A stretch of 64,000 nucleotides of DNA from NCBI GenBank assembly GCA_965232515.1, contig CBDDPY010000002.1:5376001-5440000 (forward strand). Reading direction: 5' to 3'. The stretch is from Alphaproteobacteria bacterium. GTDB lineage: Bacteria; Pseudomonadota; Alphaproteobacteria; GCA-2731375. A model generated the notes under the pieces. The model was given only the letters and a program-made list of their open reading frames with translations, searched no databases and was not told the DNA's origin. Position numbers and translations under genes: made by a program. This document shows, piece by piece, positions 5,503 to 16,595 of the stretch; positions within the stretch are counted from its first letter, which is position 1; every line of letters starts with the position of its first letter.

Positions 5503-6219
5503 ATGACTCTTCGCAACAAGCTGCTGGCGACGGCGTTCGTCGCCGGCCTCGCGACGGCGCCGGCGCAGGCCAACCAGTCGGGCTACGACGCGCCGGTCGA
5601 GCTCGACATCACCTTCGTCTTCCACATCGACGACAACCTGCCCGAGCAGGACGTCTTCGTCGAGCGCGGCCGCGGCGCGAACGAGGTCTTCCGCCCGACG
5701 CGCGGCGACCGTGACCTGAACCGGCCGCTCTATGCATCGGCGACGCCGCTGAAGCATCAGCCCTTCGACGCCGACGCGGTCGGCCCCTGGCCGAAAGGCA
5801 AGGCGCTCGGCCTGACGTTGCGTGAATGGCTGCAGGCGGCTGGCGCCGGGCGCTATAGCTGTCGCGACGGCGAGGGCCATATCGCCGTCGACTTCACCGG
5901 CCTGGTGCCCGATGGCGTCTACACCATGTGGCATTACTTCATGGCCTGGCCGCCGACCGAGCCGTTCATCGGCACCTACGACCTGCCGCTCGGCAGCCGC
6001 GACGGCGCGCAGTCCGTGTTCACCGCCGACGCCAAGGGCGACGCCCGCTTCGAGCAGCGGTTCAAGCCCTGTCTGCAGCTCACCGGCGAGCATCTCGCCG
6101 CCGGCCTCGCCATCGCCTGGCACAGCGACGGCAAGACCTATGGCGTGAAGCCGGGCGACTTCGCCACGGTCTCGCACATCCAGCTCTATACCGGCCTGCC
6201 GCAACGCGCCGGCATGTAA
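5503..6219 (+). CDS. Secreted protein of unknown function, paralog 1
   Basis: Signal peptide ending AQA, RBS GAAAGGA. Strongly similar to 6454-7230. Confidence 0.8.
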   Translation: MTLRNKLLATAFVAGLATAPAQANQSGYDAPVELDITFVFHIDDNLPEQDVFVERGRGANEVFRPTRGDRDLNRPLYASATPLKHQPFDADAVGPWPKGKALGLTLREWLQAAGAGRYSCRDGEGHIAVDFTGLVPDGVYTMWHYFMAWPPTEPFIGTYDLPLGSRDGAQSVFTADAKGDARFEQRFKPCLQLTGEHLAAGLAIAWHSDGKTYGVKPGDFATVSHIQLYTGLPQRAGM

Positions 6220-6228
6220 GGCTGGTCA

Positions 6229-6281
6229 CGGCCGCCGCCGGTCCGGAATCTCCCAGCGGACCGGCGGCGGCCGAATTTTTT
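6229..6281 (+). terminator. Intrinsic terminator
   Basis: 17-bp stem CGGCCGCCGCCGGTCCG/CGGACCGGCGGCGGCCG followed by AATTTTTT. Confidence 0.75.
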
Positions 6282-6317
6282 GTGGCCTCACAATTTCGTT
6301 ATCCCGCGCCGGCGCCA

Positions 6318-6403
6318 GGATCACTCAATTCAACGGTTTCAGGGTTCTTTTCGACGCTTTCACCTACGCGCGCTCCAACGCCGCGTCCCCATGTTGGCAG
6401 CAT
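6318..6403 (+). promoter_or_regulatory. Conserved upstream motif, copy B
   Basis: AATTCAACGGTTTCAGGGTTCTTTTCGACGC. ACG triplets at 6333/6354/6366/6378, essentially the same spacing as copy A. Confidence 0.55.
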
Positions 6404-6453
6404 CGGCGGCGCGCCTCACCCGCGCGTCCCGCAACCCGAAAGGAACCTTTGAG

Positions 6454-7230
6454 ATGACACTTCACAATAAACTGCTGGCGACCGCGTTCGCCGTCGGCGT
6501 CGCCGCGGCCTACGGGGCCGGCGCCACGCCGGCGCAGGCCAACGCCGGCGGCATCGAAGCCACCGCCAAGGCCGCCGCAAAGGCGAAGCAGGCCTACGAC
6601 GCGCCCGTCGAGCTCGATGTCAATTTCGTGTTCCACATCGACAACAACCTGCCGGAACAGGACGTCTTCGTCGCGCGCACGCCCGGTTCGGATCAGGTCT
6701 ACCGGCCAAACGCCGGCGAGCGCGATCTCGACCAGCCGCTCTATGCCGCCGCCAGGAAGGTAAAGCGCGATCCGTTCGACGACGCCGCGGTCGGTCCCTG
6801 GCCCAAGGGCAAGGCGCTCGGCCTGACGCTCAGCGACTGGCTGCAGGCCACCGGCGCCGGGCGCTATACCTGCCGCGACGGCGAGGGTCATATCGAGGTC
6901 GAGTTCGCCGGCCTGGTGCCGGACGGCGTCTACACCATGTGGCACTACTTCGTCGCCTGGCCGCCAACCGACCCGTTCATCGGCGCCTATTCGCTGCCGC
7001 TCGGCAGCCGCGACGGCGCGCAATCCATCTTCACCGCCGACGCCAAGGGCGACGCCCGCTTCGAGCGCCGCTTCAGGCCCTGCCTGCAGCTGACCGGCGA
7101 GCATCTCGCCGCCGGCCTCGCCATCGCCTGGCACAGCGACGGCAAGACCTACGGCGCGCGGCCGGGTGACCTGACCACGGTCTCGCACATCCAGCTCTAC
7201 AGCCGCCTGCCGCAACGTGCCGGCATGTAA
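6454..7230 (+). CDS. Secreted protein of unknown function, paralog 2
   Basis: MTLHNKLLATAF start with the same RBS context as paralog 1. Same C-terminus LPQRAGM. Confidence 0.8.
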   Translation: MTLHNKLLATAFAVGVAAAYGAGATPAQANAGGIEATAKAAAKAKQAYDAPVELDVNFVFHIDNNLPEQDVFVARTPGSDQVYRPNAGERDLDQPLYAAARKVKRDPFDDAAVGPWPKGKALGLTLSDWLQATGAGRYTCRDGEGHIEVEFAGLVPDGVYTMWHYFVAWPPTDPFIGAYSLPLGSRDGAQSIFTADAKGDARFERRFRPCLQLTGEHLAAGLAIAWHSDGKTYGARPGDLTTVSHIQLYSRLPQRAGM

Positions 7231-7240
7231 CGCCGGCCCA

Positions 7241-7283
7241 GGCCGCCGCCGGGCCGAGTTCTCCTGACGGCCCGGCGGCGGCC
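7241..7283 (+). terminator. Terminator-like hairpin, duplicate of 6229-6273
   Basis: 16-bp stem GGCCGCCGCCGGGCCG/CGGCCCGGCGGCGGCC. No clear U-tract. Confidence 0.55.
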
Positions 7284-7302
7284 GCCATCTCCGAGCTGCG
7301 CT

Positions 7303-7395
7303 AATTCCGGGGACAGTAACCATAACTCCTTCGATTCTGACAAATAATTAGAGTTACTGTCCCCGGAATTAATTTCGGTGACAGTAACTCTAATT
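7303..7395. repeat. Triad 1 of 25-bp GACAGTA-core repeat (fwd/rev/fwd)
   Basis: Copies at 7303-7327 (+), 7346-7370 (-), 7371-7395 (+). Confidence 0.9.
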
Positions 7396-7457
7396 CGAAT
7401 GGCTTCGGCGCGTCGCGCCGGTCGATCGTCGCGGCGCGTCGGGCGCGCAGTTGCTGG

Positions 7458-8336
7458 TTACCGCGGTTCCCAGACCGTGTTGCCGGCGGCCTCGATCGCC
7501 AATCGGACCGGCGCGCTGTGCGGCCGCCCGCCGACGCTGACCAGGCAGATCGTGCGCGAGACCTCGGGCTCGACCAGCGGGCGCGTCGGCAGCGCCGGCA
7601 GGATCGGCAGGTAGGCCGGCATCATCGCGACGCCGAAGCCGGCCTGCACCATGGCCTGCACCCAGTCCTCGCGCTCGCTGACATAACGCACGCTGACCGA
7701 TTCATAGGGCGGCGCCGTGCCGAGCTTCGCGAAGTTCGCGGGAAACTCGCAATGCAGCCGCTTCACATAGGGTTCGCCATCCAGCTCGCGCATCGGCACG
7801 GCCTCCATGGCCTCGAAGCGGTGTCCGGGCGGAAACGCCACCCGATACGGCTCGCGCATCAGCTCCCGCGTCCGCAGGCTGTCGTCATATCCCGGCAGGC
7901 TCATGATGGCGAGGTCGATCTCGCCGGTTTTCAGGGCCTGATCCAGCTCCGCGCAGTGGCTTTCCCAGATCCACATCTCCAGGTCCGGCGCGGCCGCCCG
8001 CAGATTGTCGAGATACTGGATCAGCGGTGTCGCCGGCATGGTTGTCATCACGCCCAGCTTCAGCCTGTCGGCCAGCCGCCGATAGCGTTGGGCCGCCTGC
8101 TGCGCCGCATCGATATTCTGCTGCGCCTCGGCCAGATGCTGCTGCATCAGGCGTCCGAGGTCGCTGAGGCTGATGATATGCCGTTCGCGGCGGAAGAGCG
8201 CGCCGCCGACCTCTTCCTCCAGCGCCTTGATCGCCCGTGTCAATGTCGGCACCGCGACGCCGCAGGCCTCCGCCGCGCGGGTAAAATTCAGGCTGTCGCA
8301 GGCCGTCAGAAAGTAGCGGATCTGACGCGCTTCCAT
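7458..8336 (-). CDS. LysR family transcriptional regulator
   Basis: N-terminal HTH LNFTRAAEACGVAVPTLTRAIKALEEE plus a substrate-binding domain. Confidence 0.92.
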   Translation of the reverse strand: MEARQIRYFLTACDSLNFTRAAEACGVAVPTLTRAIKALEEEVGGALFRRERHIISLSDLGRLMQQHLAEAQQNIDAAQQAAQRYRRLADRLKLGVMTTMPATPLIQYLDNLRAAAPDLEMWIWESHCAELDQALKTGEIDLAIMSLPGYDDSLRTRELMREPYRVAFPPGHRFEAMEAVPMRELDGEPYVKRLHCEFPANFAKLGTAPPYESVSVRYVSEREDWVQAMVQAGFGVAMMPAYLPILPALPTRPLVEPEVSRTICLVSVGGRPHSAPVRLAIEAAGNTVWEPR

Positions 8337-8426
8337 CGGTAGACCCCAACGTCACGTTCACCCCTGGCTGCGCGCGGCCGTCCCCATGGCCGCGGCAGAG
8401 ATCTACGCCCGGTTCGCGCAGACATC

Positions 8427-8441
8427 TTGCACATCATGCAA
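8427..8441. promoter_or_regulatory. Putative LysR T-N11-A operator
   Basis: Palindrome TTGCA-CATCA-TGCAA in the divergent LysR/PEP-CTERM intergenic region. Confidence 0.35.
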
Positions 8442-8605
8442 CGAAACGTTGCCTTCGGCGACTCTGTTCGATGCCAACGATGGATGGCATGTATCCGTGC
8501 GAGGCGCGACCCGCGGGGACATGGGCCGTCGTTCGAAAACCGCCAACCCGATCCGGTGGACCGGTGTCCGCCGACAGTATTGACCAAAACCAGGAGATTG
8601 GCGTT

Positions 8606-9376
8606 ATGCGTGGACAGTTGCTCAGCATGGCTGCGGCGGCCGCAATGGTCGCGGCGTCAACATTCGCCACACCGCCGGCGGGCGCCGGCGTGATCACGAT
8701 ATCCGCCCAGTCGGGCGCCAGGGGCACGCTTCAGGACGGCAACGGCGACGGCGTCGTCGACCTCGGAACTTCCCCGGTCGACCAGTTGTTTCAGTCAAGC
8801 ATCCTCGTGCGGACGTTCCCGACCGCCGACATCGACCAGCGCGGCATCGCCGAGTTCAATATCAGCGCCGCCCGCGCGGCGATCGGGGATCCGAGCCTGA
8901 TCACCTCGGCCCGGCTGGTCCTGACCGCCTTCACCGGGCAGACGATAACGCCGCTCACGCCCAACGGCATCTCGATCACGCCGGGCTTCGAGCTGGATCT
9001 CTACGGCTATGTCGGCAACGGCATCATCGATGTCGGCGACTTCGGCCTGGGCACGCTCCTGGCTTCCCAGACGCTCGACGGCTTGAGTGAGGTCGTCACG
9101 TTCGACGCGACCGGCTTCGTCGTGCCGCAAGTCTTGGGCAGCGCCAGCTTCGTCGGCGTCAACCTGCGGACGCCGTTCGACCAGCTCATCGGCGCGACGC
9201 CGTTCGCCCAGTTCCGCACCGGGCCCGACCCGTTCCAGCCCCAATTGATCATCGAATTCGACGATCCGCCACCGCCGCCGACGGCCGACGTTCCGGCGCC
9301 GTCAGCGATCGCCGTCTTTGCGACGGGTTTGTTCGGACTGGCCGTCCTCAACCGCCGCCGTCGCCGGTCGACTTAG
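8606..9376 (+). CDS. PEP-CTERM-like (VPAP) sorting-signal surface protein
   Basis: N-terminal signal peptide. C-terminal Pro linker, VPAPSAIAVFATGLFGLAVL TM helix and RRRRR tail. RBS AGGAG. Confidence 0.85.
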   Translation: MRGQLLSMAAAAAMVAASTFATPPAGAGVITISAQSGARGTLQDGNGDGVVDLGTSPVDQLFQSSILVRTFPTADIDQRGIAEFNISAARAAIGDPSLITSARLVLTAFTGQTITPLTPNGISITPGFELDLYGYVGNGIIDVGDFGLGTLLASQTLDGLSEVVTFDATGFVVPQVLGSASFVGVNLRTPFDQLIGATPFAQFRTGPDPFQPQLIIEFDDPPPPPTADVPAPSAIAVFATGLFGLAVLNRRRRRST

Positions 9377-9400
9377 ATAGACGGCTTCCAAAGGCTGAAA

Positions 9401-9521
9401 AGTTCCGGGGACAGTAACCATAACTAACGTGACTCCTTCGGATAATTACGGGTACTGTCACCGGAATCAAGTCGAGGCGATCAGGCTGTCCATCTGAATC
9501 ACGGTGACAGTAACCATAATT
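9401..9521. repeat. Triad 2 of 25-bp GACAGTA-core repeat (fwd/rev/fwd)
   Basis: Copies at 9401-9425 (+), 9444-9468 (-), 9497-9521 (+). Confidence 0.9.
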
Positions 9522-9547
9522 CGGCAAGCCGCCACGCGCCAGGCAGG

Positions 9548-10492
9548 CTAGGTCGGCGTCTTGCTTAGAAACGCTTCGATTTCGTGACGGCGGGGCAGGT
9601 CGGCGCCGCGGCGGGCGCAGGTGAGCGCCGCGGCGGCGGTGGCGAAGCGGGCGGCGTCGGTAAGCCGCTTCGCGTCCCAGGGTTCGGCCGCGCCCTCGGC
9701 GCGCAGTGCCGAGAGTAGGGCGGCCTGGAAGGCGTCGCCGGCGCCGACCGTGTCGACGACCTCGACGGATGCCGCCGGCGTATCGACGCGCGTTTCGGCC
9801 GTCCAGACCGTAACGCCCCGCTCCGCTTGCGTGAAGGCGACGGCGCGCGCGCCGCCCGTCAGCCAATCGGCGGCCTGGCGCTCGGGATCGGCGCCGGGAT
9901 AGAGCAGTGCCATATCCTCGTCGCTGATCTTGATCAGGTCGGCAGCCGCCGCGAACAGCGCCACCCGCTCGCGCCAAAGGTCGATATCGGGCTCGACGTT
10001 CGCCCGCACGTTGGGGTCGAGCGAGATGAAGCGCCGGCCCTTCTCGCGCGTCGCCAGCGTGGCAAGCGCATCGGCCGTCGGCGGCGCAACGAGCGCATAG
10101 GACCCGAAATGCAGGCAGTCCGCTCTGCCGAGGTCCGCCGGCAGATCGGCCGCGGTCAGCGCCCGGTCCGCCGCGCCGTCGCCATAGAAGGCGTAGGCCG
10201 GCGCGCCGCCACGGCTCAGGCTGACGAGCCCCAGCGTGGTCGGCGCCGATTTCCGCACGACAAGCCGGTCGGAGACGTTCTCGGCGGCCAGCACGGCGGC
10301 CAGTCGGTCGCCCAGGAAATCCGTCGACAGCCCGGTCAGCAGCGCCGCCGGCCGGCCCAATCGCGCCAGCCCGATGGCGACATTGAACGGCGAGCCGCCG
10401 ACCCGCGCCGACAGCGGCAGCATCGGGCTCGCGGGCGCGACGTCGCCCTCCAGAAAGACGTCGAACAGCGCTTCGCCGCAGACCACGAACAT
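9548..10492 (-). CDS. PfkB family carbohydrate kinase (probable fructokinase)
   Basis: CGEALFD, GGSPFNVAIGLARLG, DPNVR, DTVGAGDAF. Last gene of the sugar ABC operon. Confidence 0.9.
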   Translation of the reverse strand: MFVVCGEALFDVFLEGDVAPASPMLPLSARVGGSPFNVAIGLARLGRPAALLTGLSTDFLGDRLAAVLAAENVSDRLVVRKSAPTTLGLVSLSRGGAPAYAFYGDGAADRALTAADLPADLGRADCLHFGSYALVAPPTADALATLATREKGRRFISLDPNVRANVEPDIDLWRERVALFAAAADLIKISDEDMALLYPGADPERQAADWLTGGARAVAFTQAERGVTVWTAETRVDTPAASVEVVDTVGAGDAFQAALLSALRAEGAAEPWDAKRLTDAARFATAAAALTCARRGADLPRRHEIEAFLSKTPT

Positions 10493-10506
10493 GGAATGCC
10501 CCGCCG

Positions 10507-11291
<785 letters not shown>

Positions 11292-11295
<4 letters not shown>

Positions 11296-12374
11296 GACGA
11301 CACCTTGCGGATCCACTGGTCCATGGCGACGGCGATGATGATCAGCAGGCCGACGGCGAACTGCTGCCAGAGTACGTCGACGCCGCCGAGCTTCAGCCCT
11401 GAGCGGAACACGCCGACGATCAGCGCCCCGATCAGCGTGCCGAGGATCGAGCCGCGGCCGCCGAACAGCGAGCTGCCGCCGATCACCACCGCGGTGATCG
11501 CATCGAGGTTGGCGTCGTAGAAGCTCTGCGGGCTGACCGAGCCGACGCGGCCGATCGCCGCCCAGCCGCCGAGCGCGCAGAGGAACCCGGCGACGCCGTA
11601 AACCGACAGCAGCACCTTGTTCACCGGCACGCCCGAGAGGCGCGCCGCGTCCGGGTCGTCGCCGACCGCATAGACGTGCCGGCCCCAGGCCGTGCGGTTC
11701 AACAGGTACCAGAACAGCGCGAACAGCCCCAGCATCAGGAACGAGCCGAAGGTGAATTGCGCGCCCATGATGCCGACCCGCTCGCCGAACAGCTTCAGCA
11801 CCGGCGCGGCCTGGTCGATGTCCTGGCTGCGGATGGTTTCGCTTTCGGAATACCAGAGATTGAGCGCGTAGAAGATGCTCCAGGTGCCGAGCGTGACGAT
11901 GAAGGGCGGCAACCGGAACACCGTCACCAGCATGCCGTTGATGACGCCGCAAGCCGTGCCGACGGCAAGCCCCAGCGGGATCGCCAGCACCGGCGGCACG
12001 CCCATGATCACGGCCAGCTTGCCCATCACCACTGAGCTCAGGACCATGATGGCGGCGACGCTCAGATCGATGCCGGCGGTCAGGATGATCAGCGTCTGGG
12101 CCACGCCCAGGATACCGATGATCGTCACCTGCTGGATGATCAGCGACATGTTGAAGGCGGAGAAGAAGTTGTTCGCCACCGCGCCGAACAGCAGCACGCT
12201 GACGATCAGCACGATCAGCGGCACCGCCGTCGGGTTGGCGTGCAGGAAATGGTGCAGCCGCTTCAGGGCCGAGACGTCGGACTCCTCGAAGGACGCGACC
12301 TCGGTGGCGCTGTTGTCCAGCGTCTGCTCGAAGGCCTGCGGACCCCGGGCCTCGGGTGTACCGGCGTCGGTCAT
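11292..12374 (-). CDS. frcC: Sugar ABC transporter permease (fructose-type)
   Basis: ILTAGIDLSV, LPPFIVTLG, AVVIGGSSLFGGRGS. Confidence 0.85.
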
Positions 12375-12482
12375 GGTCTCGGTTCCGTCTAGGGGAGGTC
12401 AGATTCAGAGGTCAGGTCGAACGGGGTAGGGCCCGCCGCCGCGCTCAGACGCGGCGACGGATACCCCGTGATGCCCTCAGCC

Positions 12483-13529
12483 TCAGCCCCAGCACTTGCC
12501 CAGGCCGTCCTTCGACGACAGCGATGTCAGGCCGCCCACCGGCTCGTCGGTGATCAGCTCGACGCCGGTGTTGAAGAAGTCGAGGCCCGGTGTGTTCGCC
12601 GGCTTATTGCCGGTCTTCGCATATTCGACCACGGCCTCGACGCCCATCGAGGCCATCAGCAGCGGGAACTGCATCGACGTCGCGCCGATCACGCCGTCGC
12701 GCACGTTCTTGACGCCCGGACAGCCGCCGTCGACCGAGACGATCAGCACCTGCTCTTCCAGGCCGAAGGCCTTCAGCGCCTCGTAGGCGCCGGCCGCGGC
12801 CGGTTCGTTGATCGTATAGACCACGTTGATGCCGGGGTCGCGCTGCAGCAGGTTTTCCATCGCCGTGCGGCCGCCTTCCTCGGCGCCGTCGGTGACGTCA
12901 TGGCCGACGATGCGCGGATCGTCCTCGTCGCCGATGTCGTTGGGGTCCTTGAGGTCGATGCCGAAGCCCTTCATGAAACCCTGGTTGCGCAGCACGTCGA
13001 CCGTCACTTCCGATGCATTCAGGTTCAACAGCGCGATCTTGGCGTCTGCCGCCGTGCCGCCCAGCTTGGCCTTGGCCCAGGCGCCGATCAGCTCGCCGGC
13101 CTTGAAATTGTCGGTCGCCAGCGTCGCGTCTGCCGCGTCGATCGGCTGCAACGGCGTGTCCAGCGCGATCACCAGGATGCCGGCCTCGCGCGCCTTCTGC
13201 ACCGTCGGCACGATGGCCGAGGTATCCGACGGGGTAATCAAGATACCGGCCGCCTCGGCCGCGATCAGGCTTTCGATCGCCTCGATCTGCGCCTGGTTGT
13301 CGCCGTCGTACTTGCCGGCGAAGGTGCGCAGCTCGACGCCCATCGCCTCGGCCTTGGCCTTGGCGCCCTCGCGCATCTTGACGAAGAACGGGTTGGTGTT
13401 GGTTTTGGTGATCAGGCCGACGATCGGCTGGTCGCCCAGCGCCGGCGCCGCGGCCGTCACGGCGATCGCGGTCGCGCCGGCGGCGAGCAACGAAAACGCC
13501 TTCGGGAATGCCCTGTTTCGACGAGGCAT
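12483..13529 (-). CDS. frcB: Sugar ABC transporter periplasmic binding protein (fructose-type)
   Basis: [39 protein letters not shown] and the GLGKCWG end, all characteristic of FrcB-like proteins. Confidence 0.85.
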
Positions 13530-13641
13530 GATGACTCCTCCTCCGTTTCGACGACGCCGATCGTTGTCCTCTCGGCCGGCCCGTCTGGCGGGTCGGTGTC
13601 GGCGTGATGATGGTATCGAAGCATCGCCGCCGCAGGCCTGT

Positions 13642-13672
13642 CAATAAATAAATTAAATTACTTTATTTATTG
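13642..13672. promoter_or_regulatory. AT-rich palindromic operator, probable ROK regulator site
   Basis: CAATAAATAAA-N9-TTTATTTATTG perfect 11-bp inverted repeat between divergent frcB and the ROK gene. Overlaps a TTGACA on the minus strand (13639-13644). Confidence 0.65.
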
Positions 13673-13725
13673 TGCGCAACCGGCGGCCATGGCATGGTTG
13701 CGTCCATGCAGATGGCCTTGGTTCC

Positions 13726-14973
13726 ATGAGTGATGCCGTCCGGACAGCCGAGAAGGGCGCCGCGAACGGCGTGGGGGCCATGTCGTTCGCCCGCGGCAGC
13801 AACAACAGCGGCGTGCGCCTCTATAACGAACGGCTGGTGCTGTCGCTGATCCGCCGCTCGACGGGGCTTGCCAAGGCCGAGATCGCCCGCCGCACGGGGC
13901 TCACCGCGCCGGCGGTGATGAAGATCATCCGCCAGCTCGAGGCCGACGGCCTGGTCAAGCGCGAGGCGCCGCAGCGCGGCCGGGTGGGGCAGCCCTCGGT
14001 GCCGTTCACGCTCAACCCTGACGGCGCCTTCTCGCTCGGCCTGAAGATCGGCCGCCGCAGCACCGAGCTGGTGCTGCTCGATCTCGCCGGCAATACCCGC
14101 ACGGTCATCGAGCGCTCGTATGCCTATCCCGAGGTCGCGGCCGTCGGCCGCTTCGTCCGCTACGGCATCGATGAAGTGACGCGCGGACTGAACGCCGGCC
14201 AGCGCGCCCGGATCTGCGGACTCGGCGTCGGCATGCCGTTCGAGCTCTGGAACTGGCGCGACGAGATCGCCGCGCCCGACGGTGTGCTGGAAGCCTGGCG
14301 CGACGTCGATGTCGCCGCCGAAATCGGCGCCCATTTCGATCGCCCGGTGCATGTCAGCAACGACGCGACGGCGGCCTGCGCGGCCGAGCTCGCCTTCGGC
14401 GCCAACCGGGATTATCTCGACTACTTCTATCTCTTCATCGCCTGGTTCGCCGGCGGCGGCGTCGTCCTGAACGGCGCGCTGTTTCCGGGCCGCACCGGCA
14501 ACGCCGGCGCCGCCGGCTCGATGCCGGTCGTCGGCGCCAGCGGACGGCCGCAACAGCTGATCCGCGCCGCCTCGCTCTATCCCTTGGAACGCCGATTCGT
14601 GGAGGCCGGCCGCGACCCGACCGCGTTCTGGGACGACGGCCACGACTGGCGCACGCTCGGGCCCCAGCTCGACGACTGGATCGCCACCGCCGCCGCCGCG
14701 CTGGCCCAGGCCGCCGCCGCCGCCGCCGCGGTCATCGACTTCCAGGCCGTCGTCATCGACGGCGCCATGCCGCCGGATATCCGCGCCCGCCTGGTCGCCG
14801 AAACGTCAGCCGCCTACGCCAACCTCGACCGCCAGGGCCTCTCACCGCTCGACATCGCCGAAGGCAGCATCGGCCGCCGCGCCCGCGCCATCGGCGCCGC
14901 CAGCCTCCCCCTCATCGCCAATTTCGAGCTCGACCAGAACCTCCTCTTCAAGCACCAGCCCACCCCCGCCTGA
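13726..14973 (+). CDS. ROK family transcriptional regulator (FrcR-like)
   Basis: RGSNNSGVRLYNERLVL HTH region, GLKIGRRS, VSNDATAACAAEL. Divergent from frcBCA. Confidence 0.88.
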   Translation: MSDAVRTAEKGAANGVGAMSFARGSNNSGVRLYNERLVLSLIRRSTGLAKAEIARRTGLTAPAVMKIIRQLEADGLVKREAPQRGRVGQPSVPFTLNPDGAFSLGLKIGRRSTELVLLDLAGNTRTVIERSYAYPEVAAVGRFVRYGIDEVTRGLNAGQRARICGLGVGMPFELWNWRDEIAAPDGVLEAWRDVDVAAEIGAHFDRPVHVSNDATAACAAELAFGANRDYLDYFYLFIAWFAGGGVVLNGALFPGRTGNAGAAGSMPVVGASGRPQQLIRAASLYPLERRFVEAGRDPTAFWDDGHDWRTLGPQLDDWIATAAAALAQAAAAAAAVIDFQAVVIDGAMPPDIRARLVAETSAAYANLDRQGLSPLDIAEGSIGRRARAIGAASLPLIANFELDQNLLFKHQPTPA

Positions 14974-14980
14974 ATGGCCA

Positions 14981-15071
14981 AGTTCCGGTGACAGTAACCA
15001 TAACCCCGACAGTCCATGCGTAATTAAAGTTACTGTCACCGGGTTTAATTACGGTGACAGTAACCGTAATT
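14981..15071. repeat. Triad 3 of 25-bp GACAGTA-core repeat (fwd/rev/fwd)
   Basis: Copies at 14981-15005 (+), 15022-15046 (-), 15047-15071 (+). Confidence 0.9.
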
Positions 15072-15097
15072 CGTTTATCAAGGCGTGGACGTCGCGG

Positions 15098-15805
15098 TCA
15101 CCAGTTCTCGCCGTAGGGGCGGATCATCACGTCGAAGGTCCAGGCCGAGCGCGGCTGGTGGGCGATGCGGAAGCATTCCTCGGCGATATCGTCGGGCTGG
15201 CAGAAGAAGTCGTCCGGCTTGCCGGGCAGGCGTTCGCGCATGCGCGGCACGTCGATCACCGCGTCGACCGCCACATAGGCGACATGCACGCCCTTGGGTC
15301 CGACCGAGCGCGCGATCGCTTCGGCCAGCACCCGCTGGGCCGCCTTCGACGGCGCGAACATGGCGAAATCAGACTTGCCGCGATAGGCCGACGTGTTGCC
15401 GGTGCAGATGATGGCGCCGTGCCCCGCCGCCGCCATGTCCGGCACCAGGGCGCGAGCGAGATGCAGCAGCGCCATGGTGTTGATCTGGAAGTTGCGCTCC
15501 AGCACCTCGGGCTCGAGCGTCAGGAAATCGCCGAACGCCCCGCCGACCGCGTTGTGGATCGCCACGTCGGGCGGCCCCATCTGGTCCTTGATCAGCTTCA
15601 GGGTCGCGTTCAGCGCCTCGATGTCGGTCACGTCGCAGGGATAGGCCGTGCTGTTCGGCACATCGGACGCCATGGCGTCCAGCCGTTCCGCCGTGCGCGC
15701 GATCATCGCCACCTTGTAGCCGCCTTCGGCGAACCGCCGCACCAGCGCCGACCCCGTCCCCGGCCCAACCCCCGTCACCACGCAGGTCTTCCGATCGTCC
15801 ACCAC
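15098..15805 (-). CDS. SDR family oxidoreductase
   Basis: VTGVGPGTG Rossmann motif, FAPSKAAQR, GPKGVHVAY. Confidence 0.88.
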   Translation of the reverse strand: MVDDRKTCVVTGVGPGTGSALVRRFAEGGYKVAMIARTAERLDAMASDVPNSTAYPCDVTDIEALNATLKLIKDQMGPPDVAIHNAVGGAFGDFLTLEPEVLERNFQINTMALLHLARALVPDMAAAGHGAIICTGNTSAYRGKSDFAMFAPSKAAQRVLAEAIARSVGPKGVHVAYVAVDAVIDVPRMRERLPGKPDDFFCQPDDIAEECFRIAHQPRSAWTFDVMIRPYGENW

Positions 15806-15820
15806 CGCCTCCCTTGTCGC

Positions 15821-16462
15821 CTATGTCGGCCGCGCCAGCGCCTGCCGTTCCTGCTCCACCACCTCGCGCACGTAACAGCCTTCGATATGGTCGTTCACGA
15901 GACCCATGGCCTGCATGAAGGCGTAGACGGTGGTCGGGCCGACGAAACGCCAGCCGCGCTTCTTCAGGTCCTTGCTCATGGCTTCCGACGCCGGCGTCTT
16001 GGCGAGCGCGCCCAGCACGGCGCGGGTGAGCTCGGTCGGGCGCTCGTCCGGGCCCGGCTCGTGACGCCAGACATAGGCGGCGAGCGAGCCGCATTCGTCG
16101 CGCAGCTCACGCGCACGCTTCGCGTTGTTGATCGTCGCCTCGATCTTGCCGCGATGGCGGATGATGCCGGCGTCCTGCAGCAGACGCTCGACGTCGGTCT
16201 CGGTGAATTCGGCGACCCGGTCGATGTCGAAGCCGGCAAAGGCCGCGCGGAAGTTCTCGCGCTTGCGCAGGATCGTCAGCCAGCTCAGGCCGGACTGGAA
16301 GCCCTCGAGGCAGATCTTCTCGAACAGCCGCGTATCGCTGGTCACCGGCCGGCCCCACTCGGCGTCGTGGTAGGCGAGATAATCGTCCAGCCCGCCATGC
16401 CACCAGCACCGCGCCTTGCCGTCCGCGCCCGTCAGCAACCCGTCGTCCGCGCCATCCGCCAT
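15821..16462 (-). CDS. tag: DNA-3-methyladenine glycosylase I
   Basis: RCWW, YHDAEWG, LEGFQSGLSW, FVGPTTVYAFMQAMGLVNDH..C. Confidence 0.93.
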   Translation of the reverse strand: MADGADDGLLTGADGKARCWWHGGLDDYLAYHDAEWGRPVTSDTRLFEKICLEGFQSGLSWLTILRKRENFRAAFAGFDIDRVAEFTETDVERLLQDAGIIRHRGKIEATINNAKRARELRDECGSLAAYVWRHEPGPDERPTELTRAVLGALAKTPASEAMSKDLKKRGWRFVGPTTVYAFMQAMGLVNDHIEGCYVREVVEQERQALARPT

Positions 16463-16495
16463 ATACGCCCCTCGTTCGTTCGCTTGCCTTAGGTA

Positions 16496-16595
16496 GGGTT
16501 TACCGCCAAGACGCCAAGACACCAAGGGGCAGGCAATCCGTCCGTCTGTCACGCCGCGTGATCTTGGTGCCTTCGCGTCTTGGCGGTGAAATCCC
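16496..16595. repeat. Inverted pair of ACCGCCAAGACGCCAAG-type REP-like repeats
   Basis: Left arm GGGTTTACCGCCAAGACGCCAAGACACCAAG (16496-16526) pairs with CTTGGTGCCTTCGCGTCTTGGCGGTGAAATCCC (16563-16595). Confidence 0.7.

Follow-up and report, generated by a model that had tools for sequence, protein, structure and literature searches.

Repeats at gene ends of an alphaproteobacterial chromosome: a probable offshoot of the terminal inverted repeats of a Y1 HUH transposase

Canonical REP repeats carry a 5' GT[AG]G tetranucleotide at the foot of their hairpin (Quentin et al. 2018, PMC6006769), which in the E. coli REP enzyme TnpAREP is read by W94, Q95, E100, H101 and R104 (PMC6006769). The 16-mer flanking the gene of a REP-associated tyrosine transposase (RAYT) averages 57–140 occurrences for RAYT Groups 2 and 3 (Bertels et al. 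2017, PMC5581495). Other RAYT-like genes are flanked by inverted repeats rather than by GTAG REPs, many of them with GGGGWSAS at a similar distance; some of these end repeats have grown into families of moderate abundance, made up of singles, dimers and clusters. The same work introduced the names TIRYT for the enzymes and TIRtron for the units (Di Nocera, De Gregorio and Rocco 2013, PMC3733652). Most TIRYTs belong to TnpAY1 subclass 2.1, long proteins with a C-terminal helix-turn-helix (HTH)-like domain and the motif GGGG[AT][CG]A[CG], and according to Quentin et al., neither automatic nor manual searches found REP-like sequences near subclass 2.1 genes (PMC6006769). Here we analyse a 64,000-nt stretch, the window (C2:5376001-5440000), of the 7.39-Mb assembly of an alphaproteobacterium (genome G000, chromosome 65.5% G+C), which holds nine copies of a 25-bp repeat with the core GACAGTA. 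With a probability of roughly 0.8, these nine copies are part of a chromosome-wide, non-autonomous repeat family whose source is the terminal inverted repeats around a Y1 HUH transposase gene of RAYT/TIRYT type at C2:3707842-3708558. A RAYT or TIRYT accompanied by an end-derived, REPIN-like family is an already described kind of bacterial mobile repeat, known since 2010–2013.

The nine repeats and their chromosome-wide family

The nine copies form three triads of forward, reverse and forward units. Triad 1 occupies 7303-7327 (+, core at 7312-7318), 7346-7370 (-, core 7355-7361) and 7371-7395 (+, core 7380-7386); triad 2 occupies 9401-9425 (+, core 9410-9416), 9444-9468 (-, core 9453-9459) and 9497-9521 (+, core 9506-9512); and triad 3 occupies 14981-15005 (+, core 14990-14996), 15022-15046 (-, core 15031-15037) and 15047-15071 (+, core 15056-15062). 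Spacers between units 1 and 2 measure 18, 18 and 16 nt in triads 1, 2 and 3. A first-pass annotation made from the letters of the window had placed the copies and spacers at these positions and had given the copy at 15047 perfect 9-nt arms (AATTACGGT/ACCGTAATT); all of this was recovered, the arms being perfect in this one unit of the window. The window contains GACAGTA 11 times where 1.35 occurrences would be expected, and none of 100 dinucleotide-preserving shuffles came to 11; the matches at 8573 and 37588 lie outside the repeat family and the other nine are the reported copies. The islands are AT-rich, as had been annotated (40–49% G+C in 100-nt bins with triads, 62–82% in adjacent bins). 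The triads had also been called identical, which holds for their layout but not for their sequences, as partner units differ at 4–9 of 28 positions. In an Rfam scan (E up to 1) of window positions 7000-15400, the one match was to Actino-ugpB, below threshold (13747-13808) and unrelated to the repeats.

Family members were defined by an exact GACAGTA core in the repeat context, and a profile was then built from the resulting 65 units, the core alone occurring 179 times genome-wide. When the genome was searched with this profile, 79 matches were returned at E up to 10, all on C2. The seeds scored at least 22.5 bits and were clearly set apart from the remaining matches, which reached at most 13.8 bits. 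Two of the weak matches fall within family clusters and count as degenerate units; with the 65 full ones they bring the family to 67 copies at 32 intergenic loci, all on C2. The invariance of the core is real, because a consensus scan without a core requirement still returned the exact core in every strong match (64 of 64 matches at 21 or more of 26 positions); a reversed-consensus control gave one match at 21 of 26 and none above. The first-pass annotation had limited the invariant part to 7 bp. The core is indeed invariant, but the block is wider: an equally invariant CGG, one position that is T in 74% and G in 26% of units, GACAGTA, and behind it AAC at 89–97%, with more variable outer parts (T at -10 in 51% of units, A at -9 in 86%). 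The whole unit of about 27 nt reads TAATTCCGG-K-GACAGTAACC-n-TAAYTCG (consensus TAATTCCGGKGACAGTAACCnTAAYTCG), and its block takes the form GGGGACAG in 17 and GGTGACAG in 48 of the 65 units. Short, extragenic and present in many copies, albeit in moderate number, these units are REPs in the broad sense.

By layout, the 32 clusters divide into 13 inverted doublets, 6 doublets that have gained an additional outer unit, 3 forward-reverse-forward triads, 7 singles, 2 tandem pairs and 1 triple. All 22 convergent pairs point their AATTCCGG ends outward, at a core-to-core distance of 31–43 nt in 21 pairs and 71 nt in one. As single-stranded DNA, doublets and triads fold into long hairpins at -19 to -24 kcal/mol: units 1 and 2 pair in triad 1 (-19.1 kcal/mol, z -5.5) and in triad 3 (-23.9 for the whole triad, z -6.1), and the minimum-energy fold of triad 2 pairs unit 3 with unit 2 (-19.4, z -2.4). 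Single units typically do not fold, with a minimum free energy of 0; the one at 15047 forms a hairpin by itself, at -7.2 kcal/mol. An intra-unit hairpin as a general feature was considered and rejected, as the typical unit is unfolded and its arms do not covary: the pair -8:+14 is independent (31 AT, 6 GC, 13 GT, 15 AC), and of the 65 units only 19 have G opposite the invariant C at -4.

Partners of the 22 convergent pairs are closer to each other than other pairs of units are (3.86 versus 4.99 mismatches in 28; 1 of 20000 shuffles as low), and they have rare variants in common (AATTAC, GTTTCGG, CATTCC), as expected if doublets were recently copied as units. With inverted pairs separated by a short spacer and forming hairpins, and with partners more alike than non-partners, the family has these features in common with REPINs; the doublet behaves as the evolving unit, as described for REPINs, in which it is the doublet that is copied. 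The three window triads are best seen as composite clusters like BIMEs, whose middle unit can pair with either neighbour. Genome-wide this triad layout is found only here, within 8 kb. Units 2 and 3 of triad 1 have the same rare arm ACTCTAATT, which suggests local duplication, and we would guess that local copying also accounts for the confinement of the layout.

Two further sets of repeats were seen on the way. About ten sister repeats with ATTACGGTGACAGT followed by TTTACTnGATCCCCAAATG are spread over a 30-kb stretch of 58–64% G+C outside the window (C2:1527303-1556725), some of them inside repeats of more than 100 nt just before the starts of similar open reading frames (ORFs), and another dispersed set with GACAGTGCACTAA has 6–7 copies.

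A candidate transposase and its ends

A search of the genome with Pfam Y1_Tnp found two places. One is the intact Y1/HUH gene of RAYT type at C2:3707842-3708558 (minus strand, 238 aa), outside the window and 1.67 Mb away from it. The protein scores 43.9 bits with Y1_Tnp (cut-off 23) and stays below the cut-off of the NCBIfam model of REP-associated tyrosine transposases (NF047646, 69.5 bits versus 80). In an alignment of 15 homologues, H60-V-H62 (the HUH motif), Y119 and WSS at 138–140 are invariant, and a C-terminal RTGRPLG region is also conserved. Its AlphaFold model (mean pLDDT 90.3) finds as best PDB match 4er8, E. coli TnpAREP on a REP hairpin (E 4e-8, TM 0.72 on target), followed by IS200/IS605 transposases (2vjv and 2xma, E about 2e-5). 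Sequence similarity to 4er8 is weak (E 2.5e-4), with the HUH motif and the tyrosine aligned. Residues 132–238 gave no Pfam match at E up to 10, Bac_DnaA_C, HTH_23 and HTH_28 included, and are modelled with four short helices at 156–204.

A full family unit follows directly after the stop codon of this gene, and on the 5' side there is an inverted copy matching at 18 of 26 positions, with the core GACGGTA, so that the order of forward unit, gene and reverse unit is the orientation found in the doublets. The 5' end reads GGGGACGG, one mismatch from GGGGWSAS, and its GGGGAC lies 53 nt before the ATG; relatives carry theirs at -40 to -70. The gene thus has inverted flanks of GGGGWSAS type at a conserved distance, as TIRYT genes do. 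The first proposal of the first-pass annotation was a REP/REPIN family moved by a RAYT-like HUH transposase whose gene lies elsewhere. These ends support the proposal, as do pairs of RAYT and repeat in distant genomes and the absence of the repeat from a congener (see below). The second place, C2:5932449-5933037 (match from 5932606), holds a RAYT broken by frameshift or deletion after its N-terminal PHHVTQRG motif and flanked by inverted repeats of the GGGGACAC/GGGGACAT type. A tblastn search of 72,556 plasmids with the intact RAYT gave no match at E up to 1e-30.

An exact-match scan for the doublet pattern, covering one genome per species, found six records. The two Amycolatopsis matches have one short palindrome in common and look like chance. 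The GGTGACAGTAAC 12-mer occurs 48 times in an Aminicenantes genome (G041), 66 times in an unclassified proteobacterial genome (G042) and 2–4 times in three others. Full-length RAYTs are encoded by G041 (47% identical to the G000 protein, and 43% for a second copy) and G042 (52%), whereas the three genomes with 2–4 copies gave no RAYT match or only partial and weaker ones. The G042 RAYT is flanked on both sides by the 12-mer (contig C74, 8673 on the plus strand, gene 8783-9433, 9444 on the minus strand), and so is one of the two of G041 (contig C17, 214219 plus, gene 214387-215028, 215089 minus). The same 12-mer is found with cognate RAYTs in three genomes, G000 among them. Paired blocks are spaced about 63–71 nt apart in G042, where doublets are also nested, and mostly 106–137 nt in G041; since this spacing differs by genome, the same ends bound different inner sequences.

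Forty relatives were compared, 24 of them of the same family. None of the 40 has the 15-mer repeat pattern, and 21 have RAYT homologues (E up to 1e-10), many of them 54–63% identical over their full length. A GGKGASAS-type motif was present at one or both flanks in 12 of 17 RAYT loci examined and at both flanks in 7; it lies mostly 40–70 nt before the start of the gene and reads CGGGGACAGTATAT, CGGGGACACAATAC or CCGGTGACAGCTTA, the ends themselves reading GGGGACAG or GGGGACAC. Variant 13-mers are multiplied in eight relatives (33, 19, 19, 19, 15, 15, 8 and 7 copies, versus 0–1 for the reversed control); in one relative (G014), most of them are arranged as plus/minus pairs at a distance of 31 nt. 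A maximum-likelihood tree of 18 RAYTs unites the four users of GGGGACAGTATAT in one clade (support 82/94) and places three users of GGGGACACAATAC in another, together with two loci in which no motif was detected (94/95).

By analogy with the E. coli REP enzyme and IS200/IS605, the RAYT would recognise the invariant CGGKGACAGTAAC block at the element ends and would cut and rejoin single-stranded DNA with its HUH motif and tyrosine (PMC8266576). Such cutting and rejoining would copy gene-less doublets into new sites, and copies would survive only where they are harmless, just past stop codons. The copies may also be of present use to the host, for example as RNA hairpins at 3' ends.

Relatives, gene ends and alternative explanations

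We asked how the family is distributed between G000 and a congener, G001. The repeat pattern has no copy in G001, and the 12-mer at one mismatch gave two matches, both in other contexts and fewer than in the control. Seven G000 loci were queried in G001, and four gave contiguous orthologous junctions; the repeat is missing at all four. Three of these junctions have flanking genes that are 79–93% identical, with a short, diverged intergenic sequence between them that lacks the doublet. The fourth lacks a segment of 947 bp with one gene and a repeat triad (G000 C2:2497136-2498082), and the right edge of this indel lies 10 nt from the repeat triad. The remaining three loci (L053, L054 and L055) met contig ends or had no orthologue in G001. 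Beside the RAYT, homology between the two genomes starts exactly at the outer edge of the 5' repeat, with unrelated G001 sequence beyond. As judged from these alignments, the absence fits either a gain in the G000 lineage or a loss in G001.

Public reads were also compared, in four of 24 runs. DNA contigs of runs X1 and X3 match without differences and end at or near the repeats; RNA-library contigs of run X4, from a related strain, do not cross a triad; and none of the raw RNA reads sampled from run X21 (about 12% of the run) mapped.

Several points weigh against an origin of the family from the ends of the intact RAYT. Its 5' repeat is a different variant (core GACGGTA, and TATAC for TAACC) that is nearer to the type of the relatives, and its 3' unit is placed like any family singleton, directly behind the stop codon of the gene upstream of it, so that the adjacency of unit and RAYT could be an ordinary insertion (chance roughly 1%). 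In the tree, the G000 RAYT stands in an unresolved comb with those of G041, G042 and G002 and does not group with the enzymes that have the same 12-mer; the latter are less identical to it (43–52%) than are the RAYTs of relatives that use other variants (54–63%). The fourth user of GGGGACACAATAC, G002, falls outside the clade of the other users of that end. From this topology, end type follows enzyme subclade only partly. The congener assembly is incomplete (81%, about 700 contigs), insertion boundaries and target site are unreadable because the intergenic sequences of G000 and G001 are too diverged, and the read comparison is uninformative for expression or mobility, as contigs break at the repeats. 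The genome-wide placement given next rests on a crude ORF caller.

For that placement we called ORFs of at least 70 codons with a third-position G+C content (GC3) of at least 0.78, itself a crude filter. No called ORF overlaps any of the 32 clusters; 18 clusters are flanked by convergent genes, 12 by co-directional and none by divergent ones, with two left unassigned. For 29 of the 65 units, a long high-GC3 ORF of the same orientation ends no more than 60 nt upstream, at a distance of 10 to 59 nt. A fixed distance to the stop codon, or use of the unit's TAA as the stop, was considered and rejected (stop at -10 in only 3 of 65, offsets from -10 to -59). A search for intrinsic terminators, that is a G+C-rich stem with a T run, found none at any triad and two elsewhere in the 8.4 kb searched, versus 4.2 expected. 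Replication-strand bias was dropped as a candidate, the cumulative GC skew being noisy (minimum at 5.81 Mb, maximum at 1.38 Mb). Among net-oriented clusters, 11 of 13 on one replication arm and 3 of 6 on the other are '+', counts that we did not use because they are confounded with gene direction.

These data bear on the best-surviving alternative, in which the family is a fossil, spread by a lost enzyme or by the now-frameshifted second RAYT, with its hairpins retained at gene 3' ends because they serve the host there, by stabilising transcripts, by terminating them weakly or by binding a nucleoid protein, and with the intact RAYT as a bystander. That every cluster lies past gene ends and none in a divergent promoter region, with same-orientation ORFs closely upstream of 29 units, would suit such a role, and the variant 5' repeat of the RAYT, its position in the tree apart from enzymes with the same 12-mer and the broken state of the second copy point the same way. 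Against it stand the intact, full-length and conserved RAYT, the lack of terminator-like sites at the triads, the variable distance between stop codon and unit, and the rare variants common to partner units, as if doublets had been copied recently; moreover, the family is missing from the congener, which argues that it is young in the G000 lineage. As the main present-day story we consider a fossil family improbable, though it is compatible with the proposed origin from the RAYT.

We regard as very improbable a reading in which the units belong to a classical DDE transposon, perhaps one duplicating a TA target, as its miniature inverted-repeat elements, and the RAYT link is coincidental. The preference for T at -10 and A at -9, and the many doublets that read TA...TA at their ends, are what such elements would show, but several doublets begin their conserved part at ATTCC without a preceding TA. 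No gene other than a Y1 RAYT was found with the block at its ends, and this in three unrelated genomes, although no dedicated search for a unit-bounded DDE transposase was made.

Tyrosine-recombinase core sites have conserved inverted arms around a variable crossover region of 6–8 bp, with a cognate integrase nearby. The suggestion of the first-pass annotation that the units could be targets of this kind, or operators of a dimeric regulator, drew on their arm-core-arm form. The unit at 15047-15071, with its perfect 9-nt arms around a 7-nt spacer, speaks for it, but it is hardly credible for a family that shows the reverse pattern (invariant centre, variable arms that do not covary, typical units that do not fold), has none of 13 Phage_integrase matches within 25 kb of any cluster, the nearest lying at about that distance, and sits at gene 3' ends, not promoters. 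The probable derivation from RAYT ends explains the AT-rich islands at gene ends of this 65.5% G+C genome: they would form a single mobile-repeat family with a candidate enzyme, and there is no need to annotate them as regulatory sites.

In the window, all three triads lie between the 3' ends of convergent genes, as the first-pass annotation had described. Triad 1 is bordered on the left by an ORF without an identity (6280-7230, +) and on the right by a LysR-family regulator gene (7458-8336, -), whose 3' end faces it. To the left of triad 2 is an ORF with a weak exosortase/PEP-CTERM-type C-terminal match (8471-9376, +), and the 3' end of a pfkB-family sugar kinase gene (9548-10510, -) faces it from the right. 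The placement analysis counted triad 2 among the 12 co-directional cases, but it is really convergent, since the minus-strand pfkB ORF has a strong Pfam match. A ROK-family regulator gene (13672-14973, +) ends 8 nt before triad 3, and the 3' end of a short-chain dehydrogenase gene (SDR, 15098-15805, -) faces the triad from the other side.

Some features of the surroundings were also noted. Window positions 5559-6273 and 6572-7285 are 83% identical neighbours, apparently tandem paralogues of an ORF without a Pfam match. In G001, pfkB is followed by about 380 bp and then by sequence matching window 15825-16500, so that the two species differ by an indel of 5.3 kb, window 10516-15824, which comprises the ROK regulator gene, triad 3 and the SDR gene besides several unannotated ORFs. 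The assembly contigs C3 (5516 bp, 45.8% G+C) and C4 (10862 bp, 42.3% G+C) differ from the 65.5% of the chromosome and may be foreign or contaminant.

Comparison with known systems

IS200/IS605 enzymes act on single-stranded hairpin ends and produce no target duplication. The G000 RAYT has the Y1 HUH fold in common with members of this group such as IS608 and ISDra2, but its gene is not multiplied (one intact and one broken copy) and only its ends have spread. It is most like E. coli TnpAREP in structure (4er8; PMC8266576), with the HUH motif and the tyrosine aligned. It differs in that only the W and the Q of the five GTAG-reading residues are kept, by a hand count along the 4er8 alignment (PMC6006769), and in about 90 extra C-terminal residues that are predicted to be partly helical. 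The family consensus likewise contains neither the GTAG nor the GTGG of canonical REPs, and its typical unit is not palindromic, only the unit at 15047 folding.

With the REPIN-RAYT systems of Pseudomonas fluorescens SBW25 and enterobacteria (PMC3116915, PMC5581495), the family has in common inverted doublets that form hairpins, alike partners, an extragenic position and one intact, flanked transposase. It differs from them in its 67 copies, the lack of a GT[AG]G tag and single units that are not palindromic. Alternating unit orientation within clusters recalls BIMEs (PMC2817692). The same 12-mer with 43–52% identical RAYTs in other phyla fits horizontal spread over strictly vertical descent. 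A further-reaching proposal, which we offer tentatively and with the odds somewhat against it, is that a TIRYT-type enzyme here drives a functional REPIN-like system and reads a fixed block of 11–13 nt (CGGKGACAGTAAC) instead of a GTAG guide and a hairpin, that enzyme and block travel together between phyla, and that sister enzymes in one bacterial family have shifted to GGGGACAGTATAT or GGGGACACAATAC. If true, such a block-guided system would be a natural series of enzymes and sites for specificity change in HUH transposases, as well as a counter-example to strictly vertical REPIN-RAYT inheritance.

As to novelty, the first-pass annotation had left open whether the motif belongs to a catalogued class. 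It does, because the block matches the published TIRYT end motif (PMC3733652), but its exact sequence was absent from the texts searched: GACAGTAAC, GTTACTGTC and TGACAGTAACC did not occur in the main texts of PMC6006769, PMC3733652 and PMC2817692 or in four text supplements of PMC3733652, figures being outside the search. Full-text literature matches to these strings are, among the matches listed and judged by title, primer or oligonucleotide coincidences, and this is no proof that the motif is unpublished.

The RAYT may belong to TnpAY1 subclass 2.1, which it resembles in being long and TnpAREP-like, in extending further at the C terminus and in having a conserved serine motif (WSS, 138–140) behind the catalytic tyrosine. 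Unlike what is reported for that subclass (PMC6006769), its ends are multiplied to 67 copies. Its C-terminal 107 residues, modelled with four short helices, gave no match to an HTH family of Pfam at E up to 10. The likeness to TIRYTs and TIRtrons (PMC3733652) extends to both gene and repeats. The gene is flanked by inverted repeats of GGGGWSAS type at a fixed distance, the repeats occur as singles, dimers and clusters, and there is no GTAG tag; the difference is one mismatch to GGGGWSAS at the 5' end, GGGGACGG. The block of the family fits the same motif, as GGGGACAG matches it in 17 of 65 units and GGTGACAG, with one mismatch, in 48. The family adds to a poorly studied RAYT-like branch a worked case in which ends have multiplied to 67 copies, sister enzymes have variant ends and the motif recurs in other phyla.

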